A DNA stretch of 51,616 nucleotides from NCBI GenBank assembly GCA_965539945.1, contig CBETWD010000001.1:1-51616 (forward strand). Reading direction: 5' to 3'. Below the pieces are notes generated by a model. It saw only the letters and a list, made by a program, of their open reading frames with translations. It did no database searches and was not told the DNA's origin. Origin of the DNA: an uncultured bacterium. GTDB lineage: Bacteria > Desulfobacterota > Dissulfuribacteria > Dissulfuribacterales > UBA3076. The position numbers were made by a program, and so were the translations under genes. Shown in pieces: positions 2,048-48,353 of the stretch (position 1 is the stretch's first letter; every line of letters starts with the position of its first letter).

Positions 2048-2096
2048 TCAGGGTTCAAGGTTCAGGGTTCAAGGTTCAGGGTTCAGGGTTCAGGGT
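2048..2096. repeat. Heptamer tandem repeat (GGTTCAG/GGTTCAA, about 7 units), family A
   Basis: The 7-nt period is directly visible. It fills the tkt-skp intergenic gap in the stop-containing orientation relative to these minus-strand genes. Confidence 0.9.
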
Positions 2097-2660
2097 TTAT
2101 TTCTTATCCTTTTTGCCCTTGGATTTCATCTCGTTATCGTAGGCTTTTATGACCTCGTCCGTGATGTCGACATTAGAGGCATTAAAATATATACCAGGCA
2201 TATTTTTTTCCAGAATGAGCGTGTATCCACCTTCGTCACCAATACGGGTCACAACTTTTTCAAGTTCCTTGAGTACCGGCTCCATACTTTTGGATTCTGC
2301 CTGGCGCATTTCAAACTGGGCATCATCGCTTTGATCTTTAAAATCCCGAAGGGCCTTCTTATATTCGCGTTCTTTTTCTGCCTTGGCATCCTCATTCATC
2401 AAAGGGCCTTTTTTCCCAAGGTCTTCTTTAAAGGCCTTTAACTCATCTTGTTTAGTCCTGAGTTTTTTCTGTAGGCTTTCAAATTTTTTATTGAGCTTCT
2501 CCATGGCCTTTTGGCCGGCTACGGATTTTCGTACCACTTTTTGCATATTGATAACAGCTATCTTTGCCTGTGTGGTTTCTTCAGCAGTTACACTACAGCA
2601 CAGGACCGTGGTCCACAGAAAAATCAGCAGCACAGGTATTAAGCTTAGGCGACCTTTCAT
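2097..2660 (-). CDS. skp: Periplasmic chaperone Skp (OmpH family)
   Basis: 187 aa with a signal peptide. Lys/Glu-rich coiled-coil core and the size typical of OmpH/Skp. Confidence 0.8.
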   Translation of the reverse strand: MKGRLSLIPVLLIFLWTTVLCCSVTAEETTQAKIAVINMQKVVRKSVAGQKAMEKLNKKFESLQKKLRTKQDELKAFKEDLGKKGPLMNEDAKAEKEREYKKALRDFKDQSDDAQFEMRQAESKSMEPVLKELEKVVTRIGDEGGYTLILEKNMPGIYFNASNVDITDEVIKAYDNEMKSKGKKDKK

Positions 2661-2829
2661 AAGGCAATCACTACCTCCTGAGCCTTTTCATAACTCCCAT
2701 GTCCTGTCATACGGCTTTGTACACTAAGATTAGGGGTTTTTATAAAAGACACTTTTTGCAAAATAATGACCACGGCGTCGCTATGCAACGCGTGGTCATA
2801 GTTTTCTGGGATGATCAAAACCTTTTAGA

Positions 2830-3429
2830 TTACTTTATGACAACAAAGTCATCTCTACGATTTTTTGCCCATGCGTCCTCGTTTTGTTCCTGATCCAGGG
2901 GCCGTTCCTCACCAAAGCTCACAGTTCCTACACGATCCGGGTTTATACCCAGATTAACAAGATATGCCTGGGCGCCTTTTGCCCTTTTTTCCCCAAGGGC
3001 CAAGTTATACTCATTGGTACCGCGCTCATCACAGTTACCCTGGATTTCGATCATGACCTCCGGATGATCAAGCAGGAACAAAGCATTCTCTTCCATTACG
3101 GGTTTTATGTCGTCCCGGATGTTGAAACAGTCAAAGTCAAAGTATATTGGGTGCATGGGGGCGCTGGTTCTGCCCTCAGAGATAGTCTCTCCAAAGTCCA
3201 CAGCAGTGTCCATAGCTTCGCCTGGGATTTCCGTCTCACCCATACCAACTTCAGCAATGCCGGGCATTCCTTCAGGCCCTACTGCCGATTCCCCGATCTG
3301 CTCAGAGGGAAGTGCTTCTCCTTCTCCGCCCCTCACTGGTTTTTTACCACACCCGGCAAGAAGTCCCAGACTAAATATCGAAATCAATACCAACAAACAA
3401 ATTTTTACTCCCATATTTTCCCAATACAT
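2830..3429 (-). CDS. pal: Peptidoglycan-associated lipoprotein Pal (OmpA-like domain)
   Basis: Lipobox LLAGC. OmpA C-terminal motif NCDERGTNEYNLALGEKRA. I chose the start at 3429 (ATG preceded by GGGAGG); the ORF track extends to 3465. Confidence 0.8.
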   Translation of the reverse strand: MYWENMGVKICLLVLISIFSLGLLAGCGKKPVRGGEGEALPSEQIGESAVGPEGMPGIAEVGMGETEIPGEAMDTAVDFGETISEGRTSAPMHPIYFDFDCFNIRDDIKPVMEENALFLLDHPEVMIEIQGNCDERGTNEYNLALGEKRAKGAQAYLVNLGINPDRVGTVSFGEERPLDQEQNEDAWAKNRRDDFVVIK

Positions 3430-3587
3430 AAATACCTCCCGCAAAATGATTTTTAGCCGCACCACGCAACTATAATAGAATTACACTGAAAATCCACAGA
3501 TTGTGCTCCACTTTAGCAGAGGAGAAACAAAATTCAACCTGTTTTATTTACCAAATCCCTCAATTCCTCAATTTAGCCTTTTGAAAA

Positions 3588-3615
3588 CTTTAGTTCACTT
3601 AAGGCACTATTCCGG
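3588..3615. repeat. Family H motif (CTTTAGTTCACTTAAGGCACTATTCCGG); inverted copy at 35486-35522
   Basis: The reverse complement matches CCGGAATAGTGCCTAAAGTGAACTAAAG at 35486. It is followed by a small CCGG-CTTGT-CCGG hairpin. Confidence 0.6.
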
Positions 3616-3634
3616 CTTGTCCGGGTTAGGTATT

Positions 3635-5462: not shown

Positions 5463-8165
5463 TCATGTTGCCTTTTTGTTTTTTTCTGCCATGGATTTGA
5501 GTTCTGTTAAGTAGTTAATGGCTTCAAGAGGTGTCATATTATTGATGTCGGCGGAGAGTACCTTTTTTCTGAGTTCAGCTCCCTGATCAATTACAAGTGG
5601 TAGTGGCATCTGGGCCGGATGCTGCTGCTTAGGCCTCATTTTACGTACAGGACCGGCAGTAATTCCCTTTTTGTCCTTAGAGGTCTTGTTCTCAATACTT
5701 TTCAGGATCTCCTTGGCCTTTTTGGTTACTGACTCAGGCACACCGGCCAGGGCGGCAACCTGGATTCCGTAACTGCGACTGGTGGACCCATCTACCAGCC
5801 GTCGCAAAAAGACTATCTGATCCTCCCACTCTTTAACAGCTATATGCATGTTGCGCACCCTGTTGTGCTTTTTTGCCAGGTCTGTCAGCTCATGATAATG
5901 AGTGGCAAAGAGAGTTTTTACTCCTTTTTTGTCTTTGTACAATAAATTTTCCGCCACTGCCCATGCGATGGCAAGGCCATCGTAGGTGCTTGTCCCCCGG
6001 CCTATCTCGTCCAGGATTACAAGGCTTTGGCTCGTGGCGTTATGCAGGATATTTGCTGTCTCATTCATTTCTACCATGAACGTACTCTGGCCACGGGTCA
6101 AGTAGTCTGTGGCACCTACACGTGTGAATATCCGGTCCACTACACCTATCTGTGCCTCCTCTGCCGGGACAAAGCTGCCCATCTGAGCCATAAGGACGAT
6201 AAGGGCGGTCTGCCTGAGGACTGTGGATTTACCAGCCATGTTCGGCCCGGTTATAATCAGGAGCTGAGAATTGCGGTGGTTCAGCTCTACGTCGTTTGGA
6301 ACAAAACCTTCCTTCAGGGTATATTCTATAACTGGATGTCTGCCTTGGCGTATAAGTATTCTCCTGTCGTGATCCAGCTTTGGTCTCACGTAGTTATAGC
6401 GTTCAGCTGCCTCTGCAAGGGAAGACAGGCAGTCTGTCCTTGCCAGTGCAGCAGCAGTCTTCTGTAGGCGAGTTCCTGCCTCAGCTACTTGAAGCCGGAT
6501 CTCCAGGAACAGCTCGAATTCAATGGCCAGCCTCTGGTCCTGGGCAGTGAGGATCTTTGATTCTATCTCCTTTAGTTCCGGAGTAATATAGCGTTCTGCC
6601 GCCACAAGGGTCTGCTTCCTGATGTAATCATCAGGGACAGTGTCGGCCCGGGCCTTTGAAATCTCAAGGTAATAACCAAAGACCTTGTTAAATCCAACCT
6701 TGAGAGATGAGATGCTGGTCCTCTCCCGTTCTTTGGCTTCCAACCCGGCGATAAAAGACCTGCCATCTCTCTGGATATGAATAAGTTCATCAAGTTCTTT
6801 GTTGAATCCTTCCTTGATGAGCCTGCCCTCTCTGAGAAGTACAGGGCAGTCATCTCTTATGGAACGGTTTATGATATCTGCTATGTCCTGCAAGGGATCC
6901 AGAGCCATGTGAATTTCAGTCAAATCCCCTTTTTTGTCTTTTTTAAAAGAGGGATTTTGCAAGAGATGCTCAAGAGAGTTTTTTATCCCCGGTATTCGAG
7001 TAATAGATTGCTTGAGGGCCAGGAGGTCTCTCCCATTTGCAGTGCCGAGGACTGTCCTGGCCACAAGTCGCTCAATGTCATAAACCCGGCGCATCTCCTT
7101 TCTTAAATTTTCTCGAACCGAAGGATTTTTTTTGAGTATTTCCACGGCAGACAGCCTGCCTTGTATTTCAGCAATATCTCTTGAGGGATACAGAATCCAT
7201 TTCTTGAGAAGACGCCCTCCCATGGGAGTTACAGTAAGGTCCAGAACGTCCAGCAGAGTACCTTGGCGGCCACGGTCCAAAGAATTTGAAAGTAGCTCCA
7301 GGTTTCGTTTTGTGGCCTCATCTATGATGAGGTGATCGCTCAGGCGATAAGGTTTTAGATGGTTTATATGAGATGCCTCGCCCTTTTGGGTCTCAGAAGC
7401 ATACGATAGAAGCGCCCCTGCCGCCCCGATGCCGGAACTAAGCCCTGCCAGCCCGAAACCATCCAGGGAAAGGATACTGAAATGCTCCTGAAGGTCTGTT
7501 TTAGCCCTGTCATACTGCCACCATACGTCCGGCCTGAAGCTCAGAAAGGTCCCCGGGATGGCCTGTTTTACCCGGACAACAAGTTGTCCTTCCTGCCGGC
7601 TCTCCGGCAAGAGGACTTCCGCAGGCTCCAGACGGAAGAGTTCTGTAAGGGCTTCTTCTTCCCTTGTAAGTTCGGTTACCCTGAATTCTCCTGTTGAGAT
7701 GTCAAGACAGGAAAGTCCCCACGGGTCTTTGGTGCTTCCGGGATTTATAGAAATCAGGAAGTTGTTGGTTTTGGCTCCTATGCTCCCTTCCGTGGTGATA
7801 AGTCCGGGAGTCATCACCCGGATCACTTCTCTTTTGACTAAGCCTTTGGCCTTTTTGGGGTCTTCCACCTGCTCACATATTGCCACCCGGTGCCCGGACT
7901 GCACGAGCCTGGTCAGATAGTTCTCAGCCGCATGTACCGGGACACCACACATTGGAATTTTTTCCTCTTTGTGTTTGTTCCTGGATGTAAGTGTGATTTC
8001 CAGAATGCGGGAGGCTATCTTGGCATCATCCAGGAACATTTCGTAAAAATCTCCCATGCGAAAAAATAAAATTGCGTCAGGATACTGGGACTTAATGCCC
8101 CTGTATTGTTGCAACATAGGGGTGATATTTTTTGTTTTATCTTTTATGTTCTGGTTTTGTGCCAT
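5463..8165 (-). CDS. mutS: DNA mismatch repair protein MutS
   Basis: 900 aa. N-terminal TPMLQQY..FFRMGDFYEMF, Walker A GPNMAGKST, and the ATPase region ILDEIGRGTSTYDG. Confidence 0.95.
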   Translation of the reverse strand: MAQNQNIKDKTKNITPMLQQYRGIKSQYPDAILFFRMGDFYEMFLDDAKIASRILEITLTSRNKHKEEKIPMCGVPVHAAENYLTRLVQSGHRVAICEQVEDPKKAKGLVKREVIRVMTPGLITTEGSIGAKTNNFLISINPGSTKDPWGLSCLDISTGEFRVTELTREEEALTELFRLEPAEVLLPESRQEGQLVVRVKQAIPGTFLSFRPDVWWQYDRAKTDLQEHFSILSLDGFGLAGLSSGIGAAGALLSYASETQKGEASHINHLKPYRLSDHLIIDEATKRNLELLSNSLDRGRQGTLLDVLDLTVTPMGGRLLKKWILYPSRDIAEIQGRLSAVEILKKNPSVRENLRKEMRRVYDIERLVARTVLGTANGRDLLALKQSITRIPGIKNSLEHLLQNPSFKKDKKGDLTEIHMALDPLQDIADIINRSIRDDCPVLLREGRLIKEGFNKELDELIHIQRDGRSFIAGLEAKERERTSISSLKVGFNKVFGYYLEISKARADTVPDDYIRKQTLVAAERYITPELKEIESKILTAQDQRLAIEFELFLEIRLQVAEAGTRLQKTAAALARTDCLSSLAEAAERYNYVRPKLDHDRRILIRQGRHPVIEYTLKEGFVPNDVELNHRNSQLLIITGPNMAGKSTVLRQTALIVLMAQMGSFVPAEEAQIGVVDRIFTRVGATDYLTRGQSTFMVEMNETANILHNATSQSLVILDEIGRGTSTYDGLAIAWAVAENLLYKDKKGVKTLFATHYHELTDLAKKHNRVRNMHIAVKEWEDQIVFLRRLVDGSTSRSYGIQVAALAGVPESVTKKAKEILKSIENKTSKDKKGITAGPVRKMRPKQQHPAQMPLPLVIDQGAELRKKVLSADINNMTPLEAINYLTELKSMAEKNKKAT

Positions 8166-15016: not shown

Positions 15017-15688
15017 ATGGTCCCACCACCTGACCGCATATTAATCCAACGAGCTGCAGATATAGTGCGGAAAGGTGGAGTGGTAGCCTTTCCTACAGAG
15101 ACGAGCTATGGGCTTGGGGCCTCAATAAAACACATCGATGCCCTTGAACGAATCTATGTAATCAAAAAAAGGCCAAGGCATAAACCACTTTTGATCCTCA
15201 TTTCAGATATTTCGGATCTTATCCATCTGGTCAGCCGGGTTCCGCCGGCAGCAGTTACCTTGATGGAGCGCTTCTGGCCAGGTCCCTTGACCCTGCTTTT
15301 GCCGGCTAAACCCGGGTTGCCATGGCCACTTTGTGCAGATACAGCCAAGGTGGGCGTAAGAATCTCAAGCCATCCATGGGCACATTCCCTGGTACAAACT
15401 TTGGGGAATCCTATGACCGCAACCAGTGCAAACCTCTCTGAACACCCTGCCACCCGTAAAGCCGAGGAAGTTGCAGATCAGTTACGATCTTGTCCCTCTG
15501 ACTATATACTGGACGGGGGACCCACATCCGGTGGGGCACCATCCACGATCATAGATGTATGCACTGATCCTCCTGAAATCATACGGGAAGGGGCAATCAG
15601 CCCAAAATATATTAGAACCTGGGTTAAGCGGTTCAACGTTCACGGTTCCCGGCTGAAAAGCCCTGACTGGCTGTTAACAAAAGGATAA
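15017..15688 (+). CDS. tsaC: L-threonylcarbamoyladenylate synthase (TsaC/YrdC/YwlC family)
   Basis: 223 aa with YrdC-domain motifs VAFPTETSYGLGA and ATSAN. Confidence 0.8.
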   Translation: MVPPPDRILIQRAADIVRKGGVVAFPTETSYGLGASIKHIDALERIYVIKKRPRHKPLLILISDISDLIHLVSRVPPAAVTLMERFWPGPLTLLLPAKPGLPWPLCADTAKVGVRISSHPWAHSLVQTLGNPMTATSANLSEHPATRKAEEVADQLRSCPSDYILDGGPTSGGAPSTIIDVCTDPPEIIREGAISPKYIRTWVKRFNVHGSRLKSPDWLLTKG

Positions 15689-15785: not shown

Positions 15786-15814
15786 CTTTGAACCCTGAAC
15801 CCTGAACCTGGAAC
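15786..15814. repeat. Family A heptamer repeat in reverse orientation (TGAACCC units)
   Basis: CTTTGAACCCTGAACCCTGAACCTGGAACC in the tsaC-mltG intergenic region. Confidence 0.8.
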
Positions 15815-15848
15815 CGATCATTTTACGAAAAACCCCAATCTAAAGAAT

Positions 15849-16985
15849 ATGCGCATAATACGTGAATTTTGGTTTCCTGTTTTACTCTATTTAGTTTTTC
15901 TGTCCGGTTATCAGATCTGGCAAGAATGTACGTTGCCTGTTTCGGAAACAGGCAAAAATAAGATCGTATTAATTCCCACAGGGAGCACCTTTTCCTCAGC
16001 AGCACAACAACTTGAAACAGAAGGCCTAATCAAATCCAAGAGGGCGTTTTATATTCTGGCCTGGCTGGAAGATGCAACAACCAGAATCCAGGCAGGAGAA
16101 TATGAATTCTCTCAAACCCAAACGCCTATAGAGATCCTGGATTACCTGGTCCAGGGAAAAATCCGCCAATATATAGTTACCATTCCCGAGGGCTATAACC
16201 TGTTTCAAATAGATGACCTTCTTGCAAATGCGAAATTGATATCAGACGATTCATTTCTCAATGTGGCAAGAGACAAAAACATCTTAAGAACTTTGGGTAT
16301 AAAGGCTGATAGCGCTGAGGGCTATGTTTACCCTGACACCTATCAATTGACCAAGGACGCCACTGCACGTGAGATGCTCCGCACCTTTGTTAATCATTTC
16401 TGGGAAGTATGGGATTCAGAAGAATTCAGCCGCGGAACGGAAAAACTGGATATTGAAATCCACGATATAGTGACCATTGCTTCCATAGTGGAAAAAGAGG
16501 CCATGCGGTCAAGAGAGAGGCCTCTAATTGCTTGTGTATTCTGGAATCGCCTGAAAAAAGACATGCCGCTCCAGGCAGATCCAACCGTCCATTACGGAAT
16601 ACTTGTGGAAACCAAGGTAAAAAAACGCCGTCTTAGGTGGAAAGATCTAAGAAAAAAGACTCCCTATAACACTTATGTAAGCAGAGGTCTTCCCAAGGGG
16701 CCGATTTCAAACCCGGGCAAGGAATCCATCAGGGCGACTCTCTATCCATCAAAAAAGGATTATTTATTTTTTGTTTCAAAAAATAACGGGACACATTGTT
16801 TTTCCCGGACTTTGGCTGAACACAATAGGGCCGTAAATCAATACCAACGCCGGCGTAAACACCGGCCCAAGAAAAAACCCCCCACTGATTCAACACAAAC
16901 CACTGAGACCAAGCCGGAAAAACATACACAAGATGATACAAAGCCAGGCCCGCAAGACCTCCCTGCGGGTGAAAGCCGGAACTAG
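15849..16985 (+). CDS. mltG: Endolytic murein transglycosylase MltG (YceG-like) with a basic/low-complexity C-terminal tail
   Basis: 378 aa with an N-terminal TM segment. Motifs EGYVYPDTY, ASIVEKEA, LQADPTV.Y, YNTY..GLPKGPISNPG. Confidence 0.9.
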   Translation: MRIIREFWFPVLLYLVFLSGYQIWQECTLPVSETGKNKIVLIPTGSTFSSAAQQLETEGLIKSKRAFYILAWLEDATTRIQAGEYEFSQTQTPIEILDYLVQGKIRQYIVTIPEGYNLFQIDDLLANAKLISDDSFLNVARDKNILRTLGIKADSAEGYVYPDTYQLTKDATAREMLRTFVNHFWEVWDSEEFSRGTEKLDIEIHDIVTIASIVEKEAMRSRERPLIACVFWNRLKKDMPLQADPTVHYGILVETKVKKRRLRWKDLRKKTPYNTYVSRGLPKGPISNPGKESIRATLYPSKKDYLFFVSKNNGTHCFSRTLAEHNRAVNQYQRRRKHRPKKKPPTDSTQTTETKPEKHTQDDTKPGPQDLPAGESRN

Positions 16986-18917: not shown

Positions 18918-18920
18918 ACA

Positions 18921-19017
18921 ATGTTGAATGCTAAATGTTGAATGTTGAATTGTGGAAAAAGATTTATAAAGACATATACCTTAATTCAAAATTCAGCATT
19001 CAAAATTCAAAATTTAA
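18921..19017. mobile_element. Family D composite element, copy 1 (arms of TGTTGAAT/TTTGAAT units in inverted orientation)
   Basis: Left arm ATGTTGAATGCTAAATGTTGAATGTTGAATTGTGG, right arm TTAATTCAAAATTCAGCATTCAAAATTCAAAATTTAA. Arms and core match the inverted copy at 37341-37503. Confidence 0.8.
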
Positions 19018-19700: not shown

Positions 19701-21458
19701 ATGCGTTTTCCTTATAAAGATAAGAGAATTTTGTTCCTTTTTGCCCTGGCAGGTCTTGTGATCATTGCCACATCATTTGTTGGTTGCTTTTGGCAGAACA
19801 ACAGTATTAATGGCGAAGATGATATTGATTCGTCCAGGCTTTCTCAACAACAAAGCCGTGACTACTATTCCCAGCAAAGCCCCCTGTACAGGGGCATAGT
19901 TCTTGACAGAACAGGAGCGATATTCGCCGTAAGCCAAAAGACAATCTCTGCCCTGGCAAGGCCTTCCAAGTTGCCGCAAGTTGATGATTGGGCACCACAA
20001 GTATCAGAAATTCTTGGTCTTGATCCTCATGCTGTGACAAAACTGCTGTCGGAGGAACACGGCGTTATCTGTCTAAAAGACGGCATTTCCGTAGAACAAG
20101 GCCTGAAGCTGAAAGACATGCGGCTTAACGGAATAGAAATACTGGAAAAATATAAAAGGGTATATCCTTGCGGTTCACTGGCTTCTCCGGTTTTGGGGTT
20201 TGTCGATCAAGGCGGCAGGGGCCTTGAGGGAATTGAATATACATATGATAGCCTTTTAAGCCATACTAATGTGTCACAAATTCACGCAGGTGGACAGGAG
20301 CTTACGCTTACCCTTGAAAAAAACATTCAGGCATCAGCGGAAAAAGAGCTTGGCAGGCAGATGAAAAGACTTAAGGCCGATAAAGGCTGTTTTGTTATAA
20401 TGAGTGTTGAAAACGGTGAGATCCTTGCCCTTGCCAGCAAGCCTTCCTGGGACCCGGAACGTTTTTGGGAACTACCTGCGACGAATATTACAAATTACTC
20501 TCTGCAAGATAATGTTGACCTGATGGTCCTCGCGCCTCTCTTAAACTGGATGTTTGAACAAAGTGAGCTTCCAAAATCAGAAATCCAACCTTTGGACAAA
20601 ATGGCCCACAAGTGGAAATGGGAGACTTTGGGTAAAGGTCTGGTCCTGTGGAGTCCCTGGGCTGAACAGGAGCTGAAAGATTTTGTCTCTTATGACGACC
20701 TGTCAAGGGATTTCTTGGGTCTGGGGTTTGGTCAGTCTACAGGTATTGACCTTCCGGGTGAAGGCCAAGGCAGCCTGTCTTCAGCCCTGCCAAGGTCACA
20801 GAATTGCTTCTTACGCCGGGGTATTACAGCCAGTCCGATCCAGATTCTCAGGGCCTTCTCCGTCCTGATAAATGAAAATGTATTGGTGACACCACACGTG
20901 GCTCTACAAAGCCCTAATGAATTCCTGACATCCGAGTCTTCTGTGAAGGACCAAAGGCAGGCCAAAATCCCATGGTTAACAGAAGAGCTTATACTTAAAT
21001 TGCGGAAAAACCTCGCGGTCAAAGGAGGGCCTTCTCTTGCGAGCATCAGGTGGAATGAACAGTCTGAGCAAATATCTACTCAATTTCCAGCCCAGGTTAC
21101 TGCCCTGGGATTCTGGCCCGACAAATCACCCAAAGTAAGTTATATTGTTTTGCTCGACGGCGTAAAAATTGATCCTCGTGAACGCCGGGGCACTTTAGGG
21201 CGAGCACTAAAAGTAGCAAAACAGGCGGCACAGATACCCTTGAAAGACAAATGGCGAACGGTGAAAAGCCAAGAGACCAAAAAAGAACTCTCCAGGATGC
21301 CAAATCTTAAGGGAAAATCCGTAAGACAGGCCTTGGATATTCTGCAATCCATAGGCATTTCCACCAAACTCAAAGGTGTAGGGACTGTGATCGCACAGAA
21401 ACCAAGATCAGGAATACCTCTTAAGGGTGTGAATGTCTGCAGTATAACCTGTAAATGA
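19701..21458 (+). CDS. ftsI: FtsI/PBP3-like class B penicillin-binding protein homologue with C-terminal PASTA domain; transpeptidase motifs appear degenerate
   Basis: 585 aa with a TM anchor and PBP dimerisation-like motifs YRGIVLDRTGAIFA and GLEGIEYTYD. Transpeptidase-fold landmarks ILALASKPSWDP, LGFGQSTGIDLPGE, ASPIQILRAF. The C-terminal PASTA-like sequence is PNLKGKSVRQALDIL..GTVIAQKP. No SXXK is present at the expected site, and KGG replaces KTG. Confidence 0.75.
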   Translation: MRFPYKDKRILFLFALAGLVIIATSFVGCFWQNNSINGEDDIDSSRLSQQQSRDYYSQQSPLYRGIVLDRTGAIFAVSQKTISALARPSKLPQVDDWAPQVSEILGLDPHAVTKLLSEEHGVICLKDGISVEQGLKLKDMRLNGIEILEKYKRVYPCGSLASPVLGFVDQGGRGLEGIEYTYDSLLSHTNVSQIHAGGQELTLTLEKNIQASAEKELGRQMKRLKADKGCFVIMSVENGEILALASKPSWDPERFWELPATNITNYSLQDNVDLMVLAPLLNWMFEQSELPKSEIQPLDKMAHKWKWETLGKGLVLWSPWAEQELKDFVSYDDLSRDFLGLGFGQSTGIDLPGEGQGSLSSALPRSQNCFLRRGITASPIQILRAFSVLINENVLVTPHVALQSPNEFLTSESSVKDQRQAKIPWLTEELILKLRKNLAVKGGPSLASIRWNEQSEQISTQFPAQVTALGFWPDKSPKVSYIVLLDGVKIDPRERRGTLGRALKVAKQAAQIPLKDKWRTVKSQETKKELSRMPNLKGKSVRQALDILQSIGISTKLKGVGTVIAQKPRSGIPLKGVNVCSITCK

Positions 21459-24400
21459 TGTTTGGTAATACACGGCACGAAAGGACATTGCGGGATATGT
21501 TAGAAGTGCTGAGACCTGCTGTTTCTATATCACCCGAGCTGGGTGACGTAAAAATCAGGGGCATGTCCGCAGACTCCAGACAGGTAAAGCGGGGATACAT
21601 ATTTGTGGCAATTCCCGGCACGGAACTTGATGGAAGACAATTTATCAATGATGCCGTGGAGAAAGGAGCCTCTGCCCTGCTAATGCCAAACCAAGATGTC
21701 CATCGTTACGTCAAGACCGTTCCTGGAGCACTTCCTGTTATAGGAGTGGACGACCCCAGGCTTTCAACCGGTCTTCTGGCAAGTGCCTTTTATGGAAATC
21801 CCAGTGAAAAAATGGCCCTTATAGCCATCACCGGTACTAATGGTAAGACTACGATCACATACCTCCTGGAAGGCATTTTCAGCAAAGCCGGGCTGAATCC
21901 TGGTGTAATCGGGACTGTAAACCAGAGACATTGTGGCATGGAGGTGCCTTCTGAACTCACTACCCCCGATGCCATAAAACTGCAAGAGATTCTGACCAAC
22001 ATGTCGGAGCAAGGGGCAAAGGCAGTGGCCTTAGAGGTATCTTCCCACGCCCTTGACCAGCAGAGGATCTCAGGGTGCAGTTTCGCTGCGTCTGTTTTTA
22101 CCAATCTGGGCCGCGATCACCTGGATTACCATCAAGACATGGAACAATATTTCCAGGCCAAGGTAAAATTGTTTTTGGAATATCCCTCTGATACGGCAAT
22201 TATCAACATTGATGATTTGTATGGAAGGCGCCTATGGGAGATACTACAAAGGAAAAAGATCAGTTATGGTCTCAGTCCTGAGGCCGAGGTAAGACCTGAG
22301 TTCCACTCAATCAATATTGATGGAATAACAGGTAAACTTGCCACGCCCAAAGGGCCTGTTTCCATAAAATCCAATCTTATAGGTTCGCACAATCTATACA
22401 ATATCTTGGCAGCAGTAGCGGCTTCAATCACCCTTGGGATAGATCACAACCATATTCAGACCGGCATAGAATCAATAACGCGTATTCCGGGAAGACTCGA
22501 TCCTGTGCATACCCCCCAGGGAGTGACCGCCCTTGTAGACTACGCCCACACTCCTGACGCCCTTGAAAGTGTCCTGAACTGCCTTATCGGATTAGGGCCC
22601 AAGCCTCTGATTTGCGTAATCGGCTGTGGAGGAGACAGAGACAGGGGCAAACGTCCTCTCATGGCGCAGGCAGCTGCTTCACTGGCAGATATTGTTGTGC
22701 TGACCTCGGACAATCCACGCACTGAAGATCCTCTTGCCATACTCGATCAGATGTTGAACGGCCTCAGAGACCTTCCTCCCCATCACCCTGCAACCAAAGC
22801 TGAAGTGAAGGTAATTCCAGACAGAAAAGACGCTATTTTATGGGCAGCAGAAAAAGCGCGGCCTGGTGCCTGTCTGCTCGTGGCCGGGAAAGGCCACGAA
22901 ACCTACCAGATAATCGGCAACGAACGACTTGCCTTTGATGACAGGAAAATATTGAAAGAGGCCTTTGGGGCAGAACGCAAGGTTCAAGGTTCAGGGTTCA
23001 AGGTTCAAGGTTCAAGGAATAAAAGACAAGGGTCGCAGTTAGAGAGTCTTGAGGATCGGGGGTTTCGATTAAAGGTTTCTCAGGTGGCAAGGGCTGTTGG
23101 AGCCAGGGTCCTTTCGGGTGACCCGGATACAGCAATCCATGGCATATCAACAGATTCCAGATCAGTAAGAAGAGGAAATATATTCTGGGCACTTTCAGGG
23201 GACCGTTTCAATGGTCATGATTTTGTCCTTGACGCTATAAAAAAAGGGGCCATCGGCGCAGTAGTCAGTTCGACCTTTGAATTTCGACATACGAATTTCG
23301 ACCTTCGCCGGCGTCCAGTTTTGTTGAAAGTCCAGGATTCCTTGAAGGCCCTGGGAGATTTCGCAGCATGGTATAAGAAATACCTTGGAATCAAGGTGGT
23401 CGGCATTACGGGCAGTTGCGGCAAGACCACTACAAAAGAACTGATTTTCTCGATCATGGGAAAGAAATGGAAAACGGCTAAAACCCCTGGGAATTTTAAC
23501 AACCTTATCGGACTCCCGCTCAGCCTGCTTTCGGCCAAATCCGATGATTCCTGGGCAGTGCTGGAAATGGGAACGAACCAACCGGGAGAAATACCCCGGC
23601 TGTGTGAAATTGCCAAGCCACAAGTGGGCCTTATTACTACCATACAGCCTGCCCACCTTGTCGGCCTTGGGGACATAAAGCAAGTAGCCAGGGAAAAATG
23701 GGAACTCTGGAGAGCCCTTCCCCAAGCAGGTGTGGCAGTGGTGAACCTTGACGACCCCCTGGTGATGGAAGGGGCCAAAGATCTAACGTGTCAAATAGTG
23801 GGCTATTCCATGGAACATAAGGCCCTGCCATCTTCAAATCACCAAATCACCAAATCACCAAATCACCAAATCACCTGCCTGTCCTGGACCCCGGGCGAGC
23901 ATGGCACTCTGCTGGATCTGGATATTGCCGGAAGCAGACTCTCTGTTGATCTTCCACTTATAGGAAGGGCGAATGTGCAAAATGCCGTTGCAGCCGCAGC
24001 TACAGGCCATGCAGTAGGGCTGACACCGGCCCGGATCAAGCAAGGGCTGGAGGAAGTAAAACCAATTTCAGGCCGCCTTTTTCTGAAAAATCTTGGACCT
24101 AAATGGAGGCTGATAGACGATTCTTATAATGCAAACCCCGGCTCTATGAGAGCGGCTCTTGAGACTCTCGATCTTTGGAGCAAAGGCGAAAAAAAGATAG
24201 CGATCCTGGGAGACATGTTGGAACTCGGAGATGCGGCCCACGACTTCCATCAGGATATTGGACGACTTTCAGCCGATACAGGGGTTGATTTTCTGATCTT
24301 CGTAGGCCAATTCGCGGATGCTGTTTCCAAAACCGCCCAAAAGGCCGGTATTTCGCAAAAGGCTATTCGCATCTTCCCTAATACGGAGGATTTGCTTTCC

Positions 24401-24523
24401 TGGATAGAATCAGCCGCCCTTGACTGCATGCCCTCTCCATCAACCATATTGGTAAAGGGATCACGGGCCATAGGCCTTGAGAGAGCTGTGGATGCCCTTA
24501 TCAGGCATCTGAGAGAGGAATAG
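21455..24523 (+). CDS. murE-murF: Single 1022-aa ORF fusing MurE (UDP-MurNAc-L-Ala-D-Glu:meso-DAP ligase) and MurF (UDP-MurNAc-tripeptide:D-Ala-D-Ala ligase)
   Basis: MurE part: [33 protein letters not shown]. MurF part: [34 protein letters not shown]. The two are joined by a heptamer-repeat-encoded linker. The ATGA start overlaps the ftsI stop. Confidence 0.85.
22979..23016 (+). repeat. Family A heptamer repeat translated as the MurE-MurF linker ([13 protein letters not shown])
   Basis: AAGGTTCAAGGTTCAGGGTTCAAGGTTCAAGGTTCAAGG, in the stop-free orientation, at the position where a murE stop and murF start would be expected. Confidence 0.9.
23269..23308 (+). repeat. Possible family C-like repeat inside murF (encodes [13 protein letters not shown])
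   Basis: TTCGACCTTTGAATTTCGACATACGAATTTCGACCTTCGC shares TTCGACAT/ATTTCGAC units with 10051-10097 and 17051-17202. Confidence 0.4.
23835..23875 (+). repeat. Family B octamer repeat (AAATCACC x5) in-frame in murF ([14 protein letters not shown])
   Basis: A perfect 8-nt period is directly visible. Confidence 0.9.
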
Positions 24524-25688: not shown

Positions 25689-27108
25689 GGAACTGAAGGG
25701 CAAAAAAGTAACAATACTGGGCATGGGGGTATCCGGCCGGGCAGCTGCTGGATGGATCGTCTCTCAGGGGGCACAAGTCATATGCAGTGACTTGAATCCC
25801 CTGAATAAGTGGCCTAAGGGCCTGGCAGACTGGTGTGACAAAAATGGCGTCGGAGTGGAGACAAAAAAACATAAGGTAGAGACCTGCCTTTCATCAGACC
25901 TGATAGTGGTCAGCCCTGGTGTTCCACCTGACATTCCTGCCCTTGAGGCAGCACGCAGGTCCAATGTCCCTGTGGTTGGAGAACTGGCCCTTGCGGCATC
26001 CTGCTGGAAAGGACCTCTAGTCGGCATCACCGGCACAAACGGAAAAACCACTACTACTATGCTTGTGGATGAGATGCTGAAAAAGGCCAATGTGCCCCAC
26101 GTAAGGGCTGGGAACATTGGAACACCATTATCCGCACTCATTGAAGAACATACTGAGGAAACTATCGCGGTCCTGGAGATTAGCAGTTTCCAGTTGGATT
26201 ACTTCCCAAGGACCAGGTACTTTTCCTTCACTCCTCCAAGGTTCAAGACAACAGCATGGCTCAATCTTGCGCCTGACCACCTTGATCGCTACCAGGACAT
26301 CAAGAGCTACGGAGAGAGCAAGGCAGTAATCTATGACTTCCAAAGGCCTGAAGATTGGGCCATTCGCAACACGGACGACAAGGAACTGGCAACGTGGAAG
26401 GACAGAGGACGTGCCAGAAGGCTCTATTTCGGGATGCTTCGCCCCGGAGTTCCTGGGGCCGGGCTGGATACCTCTTTGAAAAAAATTAACGTCATGTGGC
26501 CTGATAATAAATGGGAGGAATATGACTTAGAAGGCTGGTCCTTAAGGGGTCGACATAATATTGAAAACCTGGCTTGTGCCATACTTATTTCACGTCTGGC
26601 CGGTGCCGGTGCGGCTGCCGTACAGTCTGTTATCCAAAGCTTCAAAGCGGCACATCACAGACTTCAGTGGGTGGTCCAAAATGCGGGCATCGACTATTAT
26701 GACGACTCCAAGGCCACCAATGTTGCATCTGTACTTCGCGCACTGGAGTCTATAGATCAGCCAATAGTGCTTATCGTGGGCGGTCGCGGCAAGGGTGAAG
26801 ATTATGCTTCCCTGGCCGAGGCCACAAAAAAGGTGCGTATTCGTGGTACGATTGTTGTAGGCGAAGAGGCCAAGGCGTTTGAAAAAGTCCTGGGTAAGGT
26901 AATGCCGGTTATCCAGGTGAGTGGAACAAAAAACGGCAAAAAGACTATGAGAAAAGCCGTGGAGCAAGCAACGTCCCTGGCTGAGCCCGGTGATGCCATA
27001 CTCCTTTCCCCGGCCTGCTCCAGCTTTGATATGTTTAAGAACTATGAAGAACGCGGCATGGCATTTCAGGAAACAGCCAGGGAATTGGGGGATTTGGTGA
27101 TTGAGTGA
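25687..27108 (+). CDS. murD: UDP-N-acetylmuramoylalanine-D-glutamate ligase MurD
   Basis: 473 aa. [34 protein letters not shown]. The GTG start is immediately preceded by an in-frame TGA. The C-terminal GDLVIE and the stop are encoded by a family B arm. Confidence 0.9.
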   Translation: MELKGKKVTILGMGVSGRAAAGWIVSQGAQVICSDLNPLNKWPKGLADWCDKNGVGVETKKHKVETCLSSDLIVVSPGVPPDIPALEAARRSNVPVVGELALAASCWKGPLVGITGTNGKTTTTMLVDEMLKKANVPHVRAGNIGTPLSALIEEHTEETIAVLEISSFQLDYFPRTRYFSFTPPRFKTTAWLNLAPDHLDRYQDIKSYGESKAVIYDFQRPEDWAIRNTDDKELATWKDRGRARRLYFGMLRPGVPGAGLDTSLKKINVMWPDNKWEEYDLEGWSLRGRHNIENLACAILISRLAGAGAAAVQSVIQSFKAAHHRLQWVVQNAGIDYYDDSKATNVASVLRALESIDQPIVLIVGGRGKGEDYASLAEATKKVRIRGTIVVGEEAKAFEKVLGKVMPVIQVSGTKNGKKTMRKAVEQATSLAEPGDAILLSPACSSFDMFKNYEERGMAFQETARELGDLVIE

Positions 27109-27295
27109 TTGAGTGATTTGGTGATTTGAGAGAAGGGAATTTATTTGAAATCGCAGATGCAGGCAGATTGTGAACTTAGCGCCCTCCGGGCGGACTTAGA
27201 AAATGGAAATTCCTATACTGTGAATTTAACTATGAGCCGAGAAATACATAAGCACAAAACAATCACCAAATCACCAAATCACCAAATCACCAAAT
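27090..27295. mobile_element. Family B composite element spanning the whole murD-murG junction (inverted octamer arms around a core with a GC hairpin)
   Basis: Left arm GGTGATT units (27090-27129), right arm AATCACCA units (27259-27295). The core contains ACTTAGCGCCCTCCGGGCGGACTT (27174-27199). Confidence 0.8.
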
Positions 27296-28488
27296 TAGTC
27301 GTGGCTGGTGGCGGCACAGGTGGACACGTGTTTCCCGGAATGGCCGTGGCTGAGGCCATGGAGTCCCATGGCCGTATAGATGTTCTATGGATAGGCACAG
27401 GCCGCCCGGTGGAAAAAAATGCACTCTCAGGACGTAAATGGGATTACCGAATCCTGAACACAAGGCCTCTTAGGGGCTCAGGCCTTGCGGCAACCATGCG
27501 TTCTTTGGCTGGACTTCCTTTCTCCACGATCAGGGCGTGTTCGTGGCTTAAATCATTCAGGCCTCATGTGGTACTGGGTGTCGGGGGATATGTCTCCGGG
27601 CCTGCACTTCTTGCAGCGAGAATGTTGCGGATACCCGCAGCCCTCCATGAGCAGAACCTTATCCCCGGGCTCACAAATCGTTTGGCCTCCAGGTTCGCAA
27701 AGACAGTGTTTGTGAGCTTTAAAGAAACTGTTAAGTACTTTCCAAAAAACAGGGTAATTTTTACTGGAAATCCCATACGGAAAAACATAATTCAATCACT
27801 CAATCATTCAATCACCAAATCATTAGCCACAGACCCACACAGACACACACGGACATTTCAATCACCAAATCACTCAATCACCAAATCACTCAATCTTCTG
27901 GTCCTGGGAGGCAGTCAGGGTGCCAGATGCCTGAACCGGCTTGCCGGTTCGGCCATACAGGTTTTGTGGCAATCCGGTTTTCATTTGGAAATTATTCACC
28001 AAACCGGCAAGCTGGATGTGTCACATGTTGAGAAATTTTACAAGGATGCAAACATTCCGGCCAAAGTGACCCCATTTATCTCTAACATTGGTGAATCCTA
28101 TTCCTGGGCAGACCTGGTTATCTGCCGGGCCGGAGCGGGTACTCTGGCTGAGCTCACAACCTTGGGAAAGCCCTCGATCCTCATTCCCTATCCCTGGGCA
28201 ACTGACAGCCATCAGGATGCCAACGCCAGAGAACTGACTGAAGCCGGGGCTGCCAAATACTTCCTGGAAGAAGAAATCGGTGCTATAAAACTGGCGGGAG
28301 AGATACAGTCTTTGCTGGAGGATCCCCAAAAGCTCATCAATATGGGAGAAAATGCTCGAAAACTTGGAAAACCAACGGCAGCCGCAGAGATAGCCTCTAC
28401 ACTGATAGAGATGGCCGGACATACTTTTTCATATTCTGAAACAGAAACTAATTCATTGAAAGGTTCTACAGTACGTAACCATGTATAA
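27232..28488 (+). CDS. murG: Undecaprenyldiphospho-muramoylpentapeptide beta-N-acetylglucosaminyltransferase MurG, with repeat-encoded N-terminus and repeat-encoded interdomain insert
   Basis: VVAGGGTGGHVFPG, LLVLGGSQGA, and a C-terminal GT28 domain (ICRAGAGTLAEL). The start is uncertain: ATG 27232 is chosen here, and the TTG at 27145 in the ORF track would translate the junction element core. Confidence 0.85.
   Translation: MSREIHKHKTITKSPNHQITKLVVAGGGTGGHVFPGMAVAEAMESHGRIDVLWIGTGRPVEKNALSGRKWDYRILNTRPLRGSGLAATMRSLAGLPFSTIRACSWLKSFRPHVVLGVGGYVSGPALLAARMLRIPAALHEQNLIPGLTNRLASRFAKTVFVSFKETVKYFPKNRVIFTGNPIRKNIIQSLNHSITKSLATDPHRHTRTFQSPNHSITKSLNLLVLGGSQGARCLNRLAGSAIQVLWQSGFHLEIIHQTGKLDVSHVEKFYKDANIPAKVTPFISNIGESYSWADLVICRAGAGTLAELTTLGKPSILIPYPWATDSHQDANARELTEAGAAKYFLEEEIGAIKLAGEIQSLLEDPQKLINMGENARKLGKPTAAAEIASTLIEMAGHTFSYSETETNSLKGSTVRNHV
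27789..27894 (+). mobile_element. Family B module inserted in-frame in the murG interdomain linker (about 35 codons: ..QSLNHSITKSLATDPHRHTRTFQSPNHSITKSLN..)
   Basis: It has the same arms and core as the intergenic copy at 25611-25688, in opposite orientation. The reading frame is maintained into LLVLGGSQGA. Confidence 0.85.
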
Positions 28489-30785: not shown

Positions 30786-31627
30786 AAATTAGAAGGCGGT
30801 CTTCAGAATTCAGGTCTTCAGCACGTAGCTCCGGCTCGCGGAACAAGTCTACCAAACCGGTATTTTCCGTATCGTGGCCTTTTCACCCTAAAATATTGAT
30901 TGGCATAGCTATAATGTGCCTTGGCCTTGCCGGCTTTTTTATGTGTCACCATTGGGCATGTCAATCTGACCTTTTCAGGGTCTGTCAAGTCCTGGTTAAA
31001 GGCTGCGATCGCATCACAGAAGAGGAGATTTTACAACTGAGCAATGTGACCGCCAAGGACAATCTCCTGTCTCTCGATCTGAAATCAATTGCAACGTCCA
31101 TAGAGGTGCATCCATGGGTCCATACTGTTGAAGTTAAGAGAAAACTGCCGGATCACCTAATGATTACGATCAAAGAACGTACTCCGGTAGCCCTGTTGAA
31201 TTCTGACAAAATCTATTTGGTTGATAAACAAGGTGAAATTATCGATAAACTTTCTACGGAAGATCCCATCTCTCTTCCCATCATTACCGGGATTGATCCA
31301 AAGAACATAAAAAATCACCAAATCACCAAATCACCAAATCACCAAATCCAAAAGGCCCTGGAATTAATATCCATGGCAAGCAAGGGCACAAGGACTCTGG
31401 GTGTAAACAATATTAGCCAAATAGACATAGCCAAGAAAGATATCTTAATACTTTATACATCTGACAGCGGTATTCCTTTTCACTTTGATACTGAAAATCT
31501 CAGTGCCCAATTCAGTAAGGCGGAAAAGGTCCTGTATCAACTCTATCGCTCAGGAATATATAAGAAAGCAGCTAAGGTTGATTTGGATTACGGCCCTGGT
31601 CAGGCTTTAACCAGTCTGAAACATTAG
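30782..31627 (+). CDS. ftsQ: Cell division protein FtsQ (POTRA domain) with an in-frame octamer-repeat insert
   Basis: TM helix, then POTRA (VKGCDRITEEEILQLS..VHPWVHTVEVKRKLPDHLMITIKERTP). I chose the ATG 30782, which overlaps the murB TGA; the track start is TTG 30767. Confidence 0.8.
   Translation: MKIRRRSSEFRSSARSSGSRNKSTKPVFSVSWPFHPKILIGIAIMCLGLAGFFMCHHWACQSDLFRVCQVLVKGCDRITEEEILQLSNVTAKDNLLSLDLKSIATSIEVHPWVHTVEVKRKLPDHLMITIKERTPVALLNSDKIYLVDKQGEIIDKLSTEDPISLPIITGIDPKNIKNHQITKSPNHQIQKALELISMASKGTRTLGVNNISQIDIAKKDILILYTSDSGIPFHFDTENLSAQFSKAEKVLYQLYRSGIYKKAAKVDLDYGPGQALTSLKH
31311..31348 (+). repeat. Family B octamer repeat in-frame in ftsQ ([14 protein letters not shown])
   Basis: AAATCACC x4 plus a partial unit, directly visible. 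Confidence 0.9.
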
Positions 31628-37340: not shown

Positions 37341-37503
37341 TAATGCTGAATTTTGAATTGTGAATGTTGAATTAAGGTAAAAGGCATCCATTTAGGTCAT
37401 GGACAATTAACATATTAAGGTTACTTCCTGTGTGATTAAAGGTATATCTTTTTTAAATCTTCTTCCACAATTCAACATTCAACATTTAACATTCAACATT
37501 TTT
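37341..37503. mobile_element. Family D composite element, copy 2 (inverted relative to 18921-19017, with about 60 extra nt in the core)
   Basis: Arms AATGCTGAATTTTGAATTGTGAATGTTGAATTAAGG and CCACAATTCAACATTCAACATTTAACATTCAACATT. The core ends match copy 1. Confidence 0.8.
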
Positions 37504-38357: not shown

Positions 38358-38360
38358 CCT

Positions 38361-45047: not shown

Positions 45048-45076
45048 AAAAAAAGCAACGAGTAAACTGGTAGCAG

Positions 45077-47005: not shown

Positions 47006-47367
47006 AATTTCCTTGCGAATAAAAAAGGCCCGTACACAGTAGTATCTTCGCCATTATGTGATGTCCGAAAGAGTTGTCTGTGGGTCATAATGACGGATTT
47101 TCCAGACGTTCAAATCAATTTGCGCATTCCACAAATATCTCGGATATATCACAATGCGTGGAACCATCCCCAAAAAAGCAAATGGTCCAAACGATGATCA
47201 AGACCCATTTCTTTATCCAAACCGTAATTATTGATTTCAAGCCGCATTCTGAACGGGAAAAGTGCATGGAACGGCGATTTCCGGGTTAATAGAAGGTTTA
47301 ATACAGGAAAAAAGTACAAATTTTATATTTATATGAAATGGCCTACCTGGCCATGATTTCAAGGATT

Positions 47368-47853
47368 TCAACCACCCTCTGCACACTGATTCGCATTCAT
47401 AGCTACCATGATATCCTGCATAGATGCGATCTTTACCTCGGAAATAGTCCCATTAAGAACTAAAGACTTTCCGGCTGCGGGATGATTGAAGTCTGCTAAC
47501 ACATAATCATCGTATAGTTCTTTCAGATAAAACTTAAATAGCCTCCCATTTGAACCGAATTCTTCGTAATATTCCCCTTCCTCCAACCGTTCGGAATGCT
47601 TAAGATCAGAAATGGGAATTTTTTTAATAAGATATGGGTTGTAGGGGCCGAAGGCCTGCTCAGGCGGTATGTTTACTTGGATCTCATCTTCCTGTTCATG
47701 GCCGATTAATGCATTCTCAAGGGCGGGTAAAATGCGATCTCTGCCATACAGAAACCGGCAGTTAAAGGGTCTGTTAAGATCCTCTGGTGTCTTACCATCT
47801 TTTACAGTTACTGTATAATTGACAGTAACAACTGTGTCTCTATCGACTTTCAT
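47368..47853 (-). CDS. slyD: FKBP-type peptidyl-prolyl cis-trans isomerase, SlyD-like
   Basis: 161 aa. VVTVNYTV, LPALENALIGHEQEDEIQVNIPPEQAFG, and an IF-domain-like insert followed by DFNHPAAGKSL. Confidence 0.75.
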   Translation of the reverse strand: MKVDRDTVVTVNYTVTVKDGKTPEDLNRPFNCRFLYGRDRILPALENALIGHEQEDEIQVNIPPEQAFGPYNPYLIKKIPISDLKHSERLEEGEYYEEFGSNGRLFKFYLKELYDDYVLADFNHPAAGKSLVLNGTISEVKIASMQDIMVAMNANQCAEGG

Positions 47854-47907
47854 CCATTTCTCCTGTAATAATGAACTTATGATTACACTGCAAAAAGTCT
47901 AAAACAT

Positions 47908-48031
47908 GATTCCGCTCAAAAAGCCCGAGATGCAAGGCGCGAAATTTTCCAGGAATGAGACGTACTTATCGTACGTCGCAGTGACTGGAAAATTGAAGCA
48001 ACGCCGCAGATTGGACTTTTTCAGCGGAATC
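47908..48031. mobile_element. Family G 124-bp palindromic element
   Basis: Imperfect 26-bp terminal inverted repeats (GATTCCGCTCAAAAAGCCCGAGATGC / GCAGATTGGACTTTTTCAGCGGAATC). Nested inner inverted repeats TTTTCCAG/CTGGAAAA and GACGTAC..GTACGTC. Confidence 0.8.
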
Positions 48032-48106
48032 AGCTTATGACATGGCTTCGATACCATTGTACTCGAACATAGTATCCAAAAAAGGTAATTTTTGCAAAAG
48101 ATCCTC

Positions 48107-48353
48107 GTAACCGTTCACGGGTTCAAAGGTTCAGGGTTCAAAGGTTAAGATGTTCGGGGTTTACCAAAAACTTGAACCGTTGATTCGTGAATTCTGAATG
48201 GAGAAGGCATGAGAAAAAAACGAGGAGAGCATATGTCATACCCCCCTAAATTTGAGGATATTGGGGCATGGCACTTGGCCCGAGACCTAACTCGCAAGGT
48301 CAACGGAAGAAAGGTAACCCTGAACGGTGAACCCTGAACCCGTGAACGGTTAC
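48107..48353. mobile_element. Composite element with about 40-bp inverted arms (family F 12-mer plus family A heptamers) enclosing a gene fragment
   Basis: The left arm is CGTAACCGTTCACGGGTTCAAAGGTTCAGGGTTCAAAGGTT. The right arm is GGTAACCCTGAACGGTGAACCCTGAACCCGTGAACGGTTAC. Confidence 0.85.
48233..48337 (+). pseudogene. N-terminal fragment of a four-helix-bundle (23S rRNA intervening-sequence protein family) gene, truncated by the repeat arm
   Basis: An ATG follows GAGGAG. MSYPPKFEDIGAWHLARDLTRKV resembles the FEDLxVWQxAxxL first helix of that family. The frame then runs into heptamer repeats and stops. Confidence 0.45.

Follow-up and report, generated by a model that had tools for sequence, protein, structure and literature searches.

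Tandem arrays of units seven or eight nucleotides long lie both within and between the genes of a 51,616-nucleotide stretch of bacterial DNA (contig CBETWD010000001.1 of GenBank assembly GCA_965539945.1, hereafter the window), and they raise the question of what sets their orientation relative to the genes around them. A first-pass annotation, made from the letters of the window alone, drew attention to two families, the octamer AAATCACC and the heptamer GGTTCAR, whose units carry no stop codon in any frame on one strand (open) and stops in every frame on the other (closed). It proposed that this property would make the repeats unusually tolerable invaders of coding DNA and, in the other orientation, ready-made translation terminators. 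Our analysis favours a plainer explanation, to which we give a probability of about 0.75: the orientation of the arrays reflects selection against in-frame stop codons together with the hairpin layout of mobile elements, and calls for no special property of the units.

The genome that holds the window (G000, in which the window is contig C1) is a metagenome-assembled genome (MAG) of 2.6 Mb in 317 contigs. The relatives of its MurG at 80–98% identity all come from Seep-SRB2 or Thermodesulfobacteriota MAGs, and the genome is that of Seep-SRB2 (Thermodesulfobacteriota), an uncultured seep sulfate reducer. Arrays in the window were recovered with Tandem Repeats Finder and pattern searches, with the chance level taken from shuffled sequence, and their gene context was assigned with Pfam and NCBIfam. 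Genes were called with a self-trained 3-periodic Markov caller, which gave 1943 genes and a coding fraction of 79%. The species compared are related, and so are not independent samples.

Stop codons and the placement of arrays

The arithmetic behind the first-pass annotation is sound. Periods of 7 and 8 are coprime with 3, so that consecutive copies of a unit pass through all three frames, and a homogeneous array can therefore fit a gene only if its sense strand has no stop in any of them. The unit translations are also correct: AAATCACC reads KSPNHQIT with no stop and its complement GGTGATTT reads GDLVIW followed by a stop, while GGTTCAG and GGTTCAA read GSGFRVQ and GSRFKVQ and have TGA in both complements. 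The property is nevertheless an ordinary one. One strand is stop-free and the other stop-bearing in 42–44% of random 7- and 8-mers from the intergenic DNA of G000, compared with 45% of the heptamer and 54% of the octamer repeat families, and the repeat units are, if anything, richer in stops than random k-mers. The view that the units are unusually tolerable invaders of coding DNA is not borne out by these figures. Having one open strand is necessary for a genic array yet explains little, because AAATCACC and GGTTCAR share the property although their genic fractions are about 20-fold apart (32 of 47 arrays versus 4 of 113; Fisher's exact p = 6e-18). The arrays of the two families are placed as follows.

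AAATCACC, 47 arrays: 32 in genes, all open; 7 at a gene stop, closed; 6 intergenic, sense-closed
GGTTCAR, 113 arrays: 4 in genes (3.5%); 3 at a gene stop; 105 intergenic

GGTTCAR is rare in genes because a complete miniature inverted-repeat transposable element (MITE) of this family, described below, has a closed arm in either orientation.

Across the genome, Tandem Repeats Finder returned 2075 rows, including 747 of period 7 and 349 of period 8, in more than 100 unit families. Merging left 780 arrays of at least three copies, about 1% of the genome; period-7 arrays with at least three copies number 573. Most of the 780 are intergenic (626, or 80%), with 78 intragenic, 65 overlapping the stop codon of a gene and 11 overlapping a gene start. 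The 65 arrays on stop codons give some substance to the proposal that closed arrays act as terminators; the murD stop supplied by an array in the window would be a by-product of insertion at a gene edge. Part of the proposed orientation bias also holds, in that homogeneous genic arrays are all open on the sense strand, but there is no general excess of closed arrays between genes: between co-directional genes, the sense strand is open in 73 arrays and closed in 53. The absence of closed arrays inside intact coding sequences is true by definition and therefore cannot test the earlier interpretation.

The traces that a selection filter should leave are present. With AAATCACC left out, doubly open units have 15.5% of their arrays in genes, those with a single open strand 4.0% and those with none 3.2%, which is the order that such a filter predicts. 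Within AAATCACC arrays, unit variants that create a stop occur at 0.024 per unit in genes versus 0.244 per unit elsewhere (p = 4e-7), a ten-fold depletion. A test that is independent of the gene caller, and that asks for at least 60 stop-free codons on either side of an array, agrees with the census; one array called intergenic falls in such an open reading frame (ORF).

Between genes, orientation follows a different rule. An inverted partner of the same unit lies within 400 nt of 205 of the 780 arrays and a direct partner of 24, and the polarity of the arms is fixed for each family and independent of stop content, as the following counts illustrate.

CAGGGTT on the sense strand, open: 11 near an upstream stop, 0 near a downstream start
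AACCCTG (complement of CAGGGTT), closed: 3 near an upstream stop, 22 near a downstream start
GAATGTT on the sense strand, closed: 17 near an upstream stop, 0 near a downstream start
AACATTC (complement of GAATGTT), open: 4 near an upstream stop, 12 near a downstream start
AACATCG on the sense strand, open on both strands: 13 near an upstream stop, 1 near a downstream start
CGATGTT (complement of AACATCG), open on both strands: 0 near an upstream stop, 7 near a downstream start

Closed GAATGTT, open CAGGGTT and the doubly open AACATCG thus all adjoin upstream stops, which argues against stop content as the driver of intergenic orientation. The stop-bearing strand lies towards the downstream start for CAGGGTT, CAGAGGTT and CAAGGGTT and the reverse holds for GAATGTT, with distances to starts resting on our own start calls. 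The order of arms between genes is that of an element of the form X–loop–X' filling the gap.

These observations can be drawn together in a model in which the genus bears a lineage-specific burden of short tandem repeats with 7- and 8-nt units. Many of the arrays are arms of inverted-repeat, hairpin-forming, MITE-like elements (the GGTTCAR arrays including inverted MITE ends), and others are solitary and microsatellite-like, growing, shrinking and homogenizing in place; we infer slipped-strand mispairing to be their engine. Genes would retain only arrays that are free of stops in the host frame and whose total length is divisible by 3. The period being coprime with 3, a homogeneous genic array would therefore be open in all frames and would change its copy number in steps of three units. 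Between genes, the X–loop–X' layout would set orientation, one arm type facing the upstream gene and the other the downstream gene, and the stops and starts that arrays supply (in murD and coaE, respectively) would be by-products of insertion at gene edges.

The two focus families occur in 15 and 16 of 17 congeneric species, whereas a search of 23 genomes belonging to other genera in that family and order found neither. Outside the window, Pfam identifies ten hosts of AAATCACC arrays, with domains around or across the array in each: DnaE, PheT, an Mpl–Tgt junction, LpxB, GpsA, BioA, OTC, the CCA-adding enzyme, FolK and an ABC ATPase. At the Mpl–Tgt junction (C253:17-2581 of G000), Mpl (a Mur ligase) and Tgt (queuine tRNA-ribosyltransferase) form one ORF joined by a AAATCACC array at residues 466–488, with no start codon left for Tgt. 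Either the array has fused the two genes, or it hides the junction between them. An exact 31-nt AAATCACC array is also found in MAGs of Saprospiraceae, Chitinophagaceae, Bacteroidales, Acidobacteriota, Planctomycetota (Isosphaeraceae) and other groups. In these phyla the arrays lie mostly outside ORFs, vary in length and can exceed 100 nt, and their occurrence is compatible with independent origin rather than horizontal sharing. A separate family, AACCCGC/GCGGGTT, is open on both strands and has seven of its nine arrays inside large ORFs (C30:9874-12843, C44:5306-8113, C98 and C241), in places as inverted pairs about 365 nt apart within a gene.

Frame-quantised length change and neutral drift in genic arrays

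The arrays reported for the window are present and far above chance: two consecutive AAATCACC units occur 11 times compared with 0.00 in shuffled sequence, and two consecutive GGTTCAR units 14 times compared with 0.10. With their host and neighbouring genes they are as follows; reading of the genic arrays as protein is predicted.

90–2039, minus strand: tkt
2047–2097, plus strand: (TTCAGGG)x7.3 array filling the 57-nt gap between the skp-like gene and tkt
2097–2660, minus strand: skp-like gene
15786–15815, plus strand: (TGAACCC) array, sense-closed, between tsaC (15017–15688) and mltG (15849–16985)
21455–24523: MurE–MurF fusion ORF, MurE ending near residue 505 and MurF beginning near residue 539
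22978–23017, plus strand: (GGTTCAR)x5.7 array, predicted translated, exactly in the MurE–MurF linker
23835–23875, plus strand: (AAATCACC)x5 array, predicted translated, within MurF
25611–25688, plus strand: composite element in the mraY–murD gap, GGTGATT arms around a GTCTGTG-rich core, sense-closed
27091–27128, plus strand: (GGTGATTK) array, sense-closed, encoding the last murD codons and the stop at 27106–27108
27145–28488: MurG ORF, with a conserved ATG at 27232
27261–27295, plus strand: (AAATCACC)x4.4 array, predicted translated, MurG codons 10–21
27790–27895, plus strand: two AATCACY arrays flanking a ~42-nt core (~27820–27860), predicted translated, in the MurG interdomain linker
31312–31348, plus strand: (AAATCACC)x4.6 array, predicted translated, in the FtsQ C-terminal domain

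The five arrays that the first-pass annotation had placed within genes (at 22979, 23835, 27259, 27789 and 31311) do lie in the MurE–MurF linker, MurF, MurG (two) and FtsQ, and the closed arrays at 2048, 15786 and 25611–25637 are intergenic, as it stated. It was also right that the array at 27091–27128 supplies the murD stop, the MurD tail reading ARELGDLVIE before the stop codon. The array at 2047–2097 reads CCCTGAA, and is thus closed, on the sense (minus) strand. The array at 15786–15815, with its flank ...GGAACCGATCAYTTTA, corresponds to the end of a dispersed element that recurs at C106, C15, C191 and C2.

Comparison between species separates the arrays inside genes from those at gene boundaries. 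For the MurG N-terminal, MurG linker and FtsQ arrays, followed in 12–13 species, all differences in length are multiples of 3: 0 or +24 nt for the first, 0, 18, 42, 51, 60 or 66 nt for the second and none for the third, which has equal length in 12 species. Boundary and intergenic arrays differ by 7, 20, 32 or 139 nt: 7 or 32 nt for the array at the murD stop, which is absent in L001 and L003, and +139, +20 and also -18 nt for the mraY–murD element at 25611–25688. The position of the murD stop is not conserved across species. Of the octamer arrays of relatives that could be mapped, 31 of 40 have an array at the orthologous site in G000, and in three of the exceptions a remnant of about 1.5 units marks a three-unit contraction. 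Frame switching by change of copy number was not encountered, since genic arrays vary in multiples of 3 and their hosts are essential; the MurE–MurF linker of one congener, G007, is the sole exception. Loss of mismatch repair as the source of instability was rejected, MutS being encoded in G000 (window 5463–8165) and in 15 of 17 congeners.

The genic arrays otherwise drift. Columns of the murG arrays diverge by 0.14 per site versus 0.145 at third codon positions, and functional constraint at the nucleotide level was accordingly rejected for murG. The array in MurF has a decayed version of equal length in G012, and the corresponding segment of the outgroups is 6–12 residues shorter. Likewise, the FtsQ array is decayed in L010, and these two most divergent genomes, L010 and G012, keep decayed arrays at unchanged length. 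In L013 and L008 the periodicity persists with species-specific units (AAATTATC, AAATTACC and AAATCAAC; the FtsQ array of L013 consists of homogenized units AAATCAAC x3). Whole arrays that carry species-specific units at unchanged length are a case of concerted evolution. Taken together, the sequence comparisons suggest that the genic arrays are translated and serve as neutral spacers.

Across the 17 species compared, lengths of the MurE–MurF linker differ by multiples of 3 nt with one exception (G007), and every non-basal congener examined carries a heptamer array at this site, its unit differing between species (GGTTCAR, GGTTGAA/GGTAGAA, GGTCAGA, GGTCGGA, GGTCGAA or GTTCGGA). In the basal species G012 and G009 the linker holds only a 68-nt proto-repeat. 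Openness in all three frames, on which the earlier argument turned, is not needed: GGTTGAA (containing TGA) and GGTAGAA (containing TAG) are read in frame in intact congener linkers, where they are tolerated because the variants occupy only harmless phases. In G000, 19 genic arrays carry stops in frames other than that of the host. In G007 (L149, G007:C13) the linker array is 14 nt longer than in G000, which brings TAG and TGA into frame; this reflects either a misassembled array or a MurE–MurF fusion that has come apart in G007. That the array created the fusion was rejected, the outgroups G019 and G022 having the fusion and no array there. The idea that each species draws its linker unit from a family abundant across its genome is unsupported, GGTCRGA being present at one to four loci, only in its three linker species.

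Several smaller features accompany the window arrays. The array at 27261–27295 is inverted relative to that at 27091–27128, and the pair forms a predicted hairpin (z = -4.3 versus shuffled sequence) with the murG start in its loop. A core of about 42 nt, rich in ACAGAC/GTCTGT, lies inside AAATCACC arrays at ~27820–27860 and ~25640–25675 of the window, at C38:3190-3225 (in LpxB) and at C18:21670-21700. In the MurG linker it is present in only five of 13 species, as an exact 42-nt in-frame indel, much as would a tiny mobile insert directed at the AAATCACC array. The murD–murG spacer also holds a 50-nt segment (27169–27218) with a GC hairpin (GCGCCCTCCGGGCGG) and TGTGAAYTTA direct repeats at both sides; G000, L004 and L009 have this segment, the remaining species with the spacer lack it, and it looks like another tiny insertion. 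The division and cell wall (dcw) cluster of the window runs ftsI, murE–murF, mraY, murD, murG, murC, murB, ftsQ, ftsA, ftsZ, and the interval 25687–28488 has no ftsW/SEDS gene between murD and murG.

Hairpin elements and a MITE inserted in coaE

Two families of dispersed element were resolved, and their positions in the window, with that of coaE, are as follows.

18920–19014 and 37347–37500: copies of a hairpin element with (AATGYTG)n arms
48107–48353, no strand: MITE of 247 bp, with GGTTCAN arms at 48113–48161 and 48316–48347
48327–48998, plus strand: coaE in its present reading, with GTG starts at 48327 and 48342

The hairpin element has 58 copies across the genome, its (AATGYTG)n arms enclosing a 40-nt loop (GAATTGTGGAAGAAGATTTAAAAGACATATACCTTAATTC) that is conserved, as are the outer flanks. 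Some copies have the arms and loop flipped with respect to these flanks, which suggests that the arms have recombined with each other. The MITE family has inverted ends (GTAACCGTTCACGGGTTCA...) made of GGTTCAN heptamers and is flanked by 8-bp target duplications. Its end sequence has about 200 matches in G000, and 30 copies are complete, 120–300 nt long and without an ORF.

The MITE at coaE accounts for two arrays that had been listed as separate arms, at 48121 and 48313, and which are the two inverted ends of this single 247-bp element. It is flanked by the 8-bp target duplication AGATCCTC at 48099–48106 and 48354–48361, and the orthologous site in ten congeners is uninterrupted. Its predicted hairpin has a z score of -6.5 versus shuffled sequence. 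In these congeners the coaE start codon is an ATG that precedes the P-loop by 29 codons. In G000 the MITE has inserted after codon 22 and splits the gene, so that the native ATG at 48042 leads into a 22-codon stub (MASIPLYSNIVSKKGNFCKRSS, then the stop) that ends at the TAA of the GTAA terminus of the element. The first-pass annotation had correctly placed the only candidate coaE start codons in the closed arm: upstream of the CoaE P-loop, the frame has no canonical starts other than the GTG codons at 48327 and 48342, and coaE probably re-initiates at a GTG there. The closed arm holds the coaE starts because a transposon landed in the 5' part of the coding sequence. Between an FKBP-type isomerase gene and coaE, at 47879–48032, lies a second dispersed repeat, about 154 nt long; most of the congeners compared lack it there, and it has more than 100 matches across the genus among the matches listed.

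An IS66 transposase was considered as the partner of the MITEs and rejected: a PF03050 search of G000 gave only a 20.6-bit fragment, with nothing above the cut-off, and pairs of MITE ends 1.4–4.5 kb apart enclose ordinary genes and no cognate transposase. A known RNA family was rejected likewise, since Rfam gave no match at the gathering score anywhere in the window.

Competing explanations and known systems

It is improbable that the units were shaped or favoured for having one strand open in all frames, a property that would then make them tolerable invaders and ready terminators and would drive their orientation. Such a history would agree with the uniformly sense-open homogeneous genic arrays, the 65 arrays on stop codons, the higher genic frequency of units open on both strands than of one-open or closed units and the purging of stop-creating variants from genes. 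The property is, however, at its random expectation, and GGTTCAR has it yet is genic in 3.5% of cases; intergenic orientation tracks arm polarity and not stop content, so that either closed or open arms lie near upstream stops depending on the family; stop-bearing units survive in frame in the MurE–MurF linker; and the murD stop moves between species. We consider it very improbable that the arrays and hairpins serve a regulatory function at gene junctions, acting on translation or mRNA stability, with the genic copies as spill-over. The positions do resemble those of TAACTGA repeats (discussed below): open GGTTCAR arms lie 1–36 nt after stops in 16 of 18 cases and closed arms at most 53 nt upstream of a called start in 26 of 37, although these start distances hang on our own calls, which tend to extend an ORF to the first stop in the closed arm. 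The predicted pairing of the murD and murG arrays around the murG start points the same way. Any X–loop–X' element filling an intergenic gap would give this pattern, though, and the elements are polymorphic for presence between species, no Rfam family matches in the window and array columns drift at the neutral rate.

Selection against stops combined with hairpin layout remains the explanation that we prefer, and several points weigh against it. Gene calls come from the Markov caller, whose start codons are uncertain, and this touches about ten arrays at extreme N-termini. With 51 of the 780 arrays within 50 nt of a contig end in a MAG of 317 contigs, long arrays are under-sampled. Species-specific units at fixed length require a homogenizing process. 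The genic frequency of AAATCACC is far above what a filter on random insertion would give and stands outside the filter model as an unexplained outlier, and its uniform size of 35–41 nt and conserved edges (C|AATCACC...CCAAAT|T) look more like a discrete module than like slippage. This uniformity, the predominance in genes and the ~42-nt cores within AAATCACC arrays, in frame in MurG and LpxB, would be explained if the arrays were copies of a mobile or template-copied module, some 36 nt long and directed at coding or transcribed DNA, a selfish element resembling the Rickettsia palindromic elements. We find this rather unlikely, given that no empty/filled polymorphism with target duplications was found for AAATCACC, that 31 of 40 sites are shared between species, so that most insertions are old, that the differences fit three-unit slippage (4.5 versus 1.5 or 7.5 units) and that the octamer forms ordinary intergenic arrays in unrelated phyla. 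A more speculative suggestion, to which we attach a low likelihood, is that Seep-SRB2 has an active lineage-specific process that creates and homogenizes 7- and 8-nt arrays beyond passive slippage. It would fit because the same linker site holds different, internally homogeneous units in each species, because arrays keep their periodicity while drifting neutrally and because AAATCACC acts as an invader of more than 30 housekeeping genes in the style of the Rickettsia elements, in three-unit quanta. On this view, paired arms at junctions, with a stop in one and a start beside the other, could in addition tune translational coupling.

A literature search returned no paper linking Seep-SRB2 with tandem repeats. 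It is worth recording that these uncultured syntrophic sulfate reducers, partners of methane-oxidizing archaea, carry hundreds of arrays and heptamer-ended MITEs. The repeats appear to be a main cause of fragmentation in these MAG assemblies; in G000, no called gene separates 189 of the arrays from the end of their contig. Arrays also create or shift stop and start codons (murD and coaE) and would add neutral peptide spacers to essential enzymes (MurG, FtsQ, DnaE and LpxB), and the annotation of Seep-SRB2 MAGs is affected in its start codons, apparent fusions and apparent splits. The genus offers a natural experiment on the protein sites that tolerate insertions and on how a reading frame quantizes microsatellite dynamics.

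Four known systems invite comparison. IS66-type MITEs have 8-bp target duplications and ends beginning GTAA. The GGTTCAR-armed elements resemble them in ends that start GTAACCG, 8-bp duplications, lack of coding sequence, many copies and species-variable presence, and differ in ends built from tandem heptamers and in the lack of an IS66 transposase above the cut-off in the assembly. Cyanobacteria reportedly carry heptameric short tandemly repeated repetitive sequences with small dispersed repeats embedded in them, said to be abundant and restricted to lineages. The arrays described here share this abundance, restriction and heptamer period, with the ~42-nt ACAGAC-rich core as a counterpart of the tiny embedded cores; the phylum and the units differ, and the genic in-frame part is much larger here.

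The closest precedent is the heptamer TAACTGA, which is repeated in marine Beggiatoaceae and in some cyanobacteria and Bacteroidetes (MacGregor, 2015; PMC4679880). Its forward copies have stops in all frames, overlap the ends of ORFs and precede start codons, its reverse copies lie within ORFs and its indels come in whole units (PMC4679880). The orientation rule set out in the first-pass annotation is largely forced, and it is not new, the same stop-codon argument having been made for TAACTGA (PMC4679880). Both systems consist of many copies of tandem 7-nt units, mostly intergenic, with stops in all three frames on one strand and none on the other. They differ in that G000 has 240 single copies of TAACTGA and no tandem pair, in that more than 100 unit families occur here in place of one dominant unit, and in that many arrays here are arms of inverted repeats or MITEs and one octamer family is mainly genic. 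For that octamer family the Rickettsia palindromic elements, which invade housekeeping genes in frame (Ogata et al., 2000, as reviewed in PMC10969869), offer the nearer parallel: AAATCACC too is inserted in frame in many unrelated housekeeping genes and would be read as an extra peptide at tolerated sites. A Rickettsia element is, however, a palindrome of about 100–150 bp with a conserved ORF, whereas the AAATCACC insert is a tandem octamer array of 35–41 nt that changes in three-unit steps, with concerted evolution.

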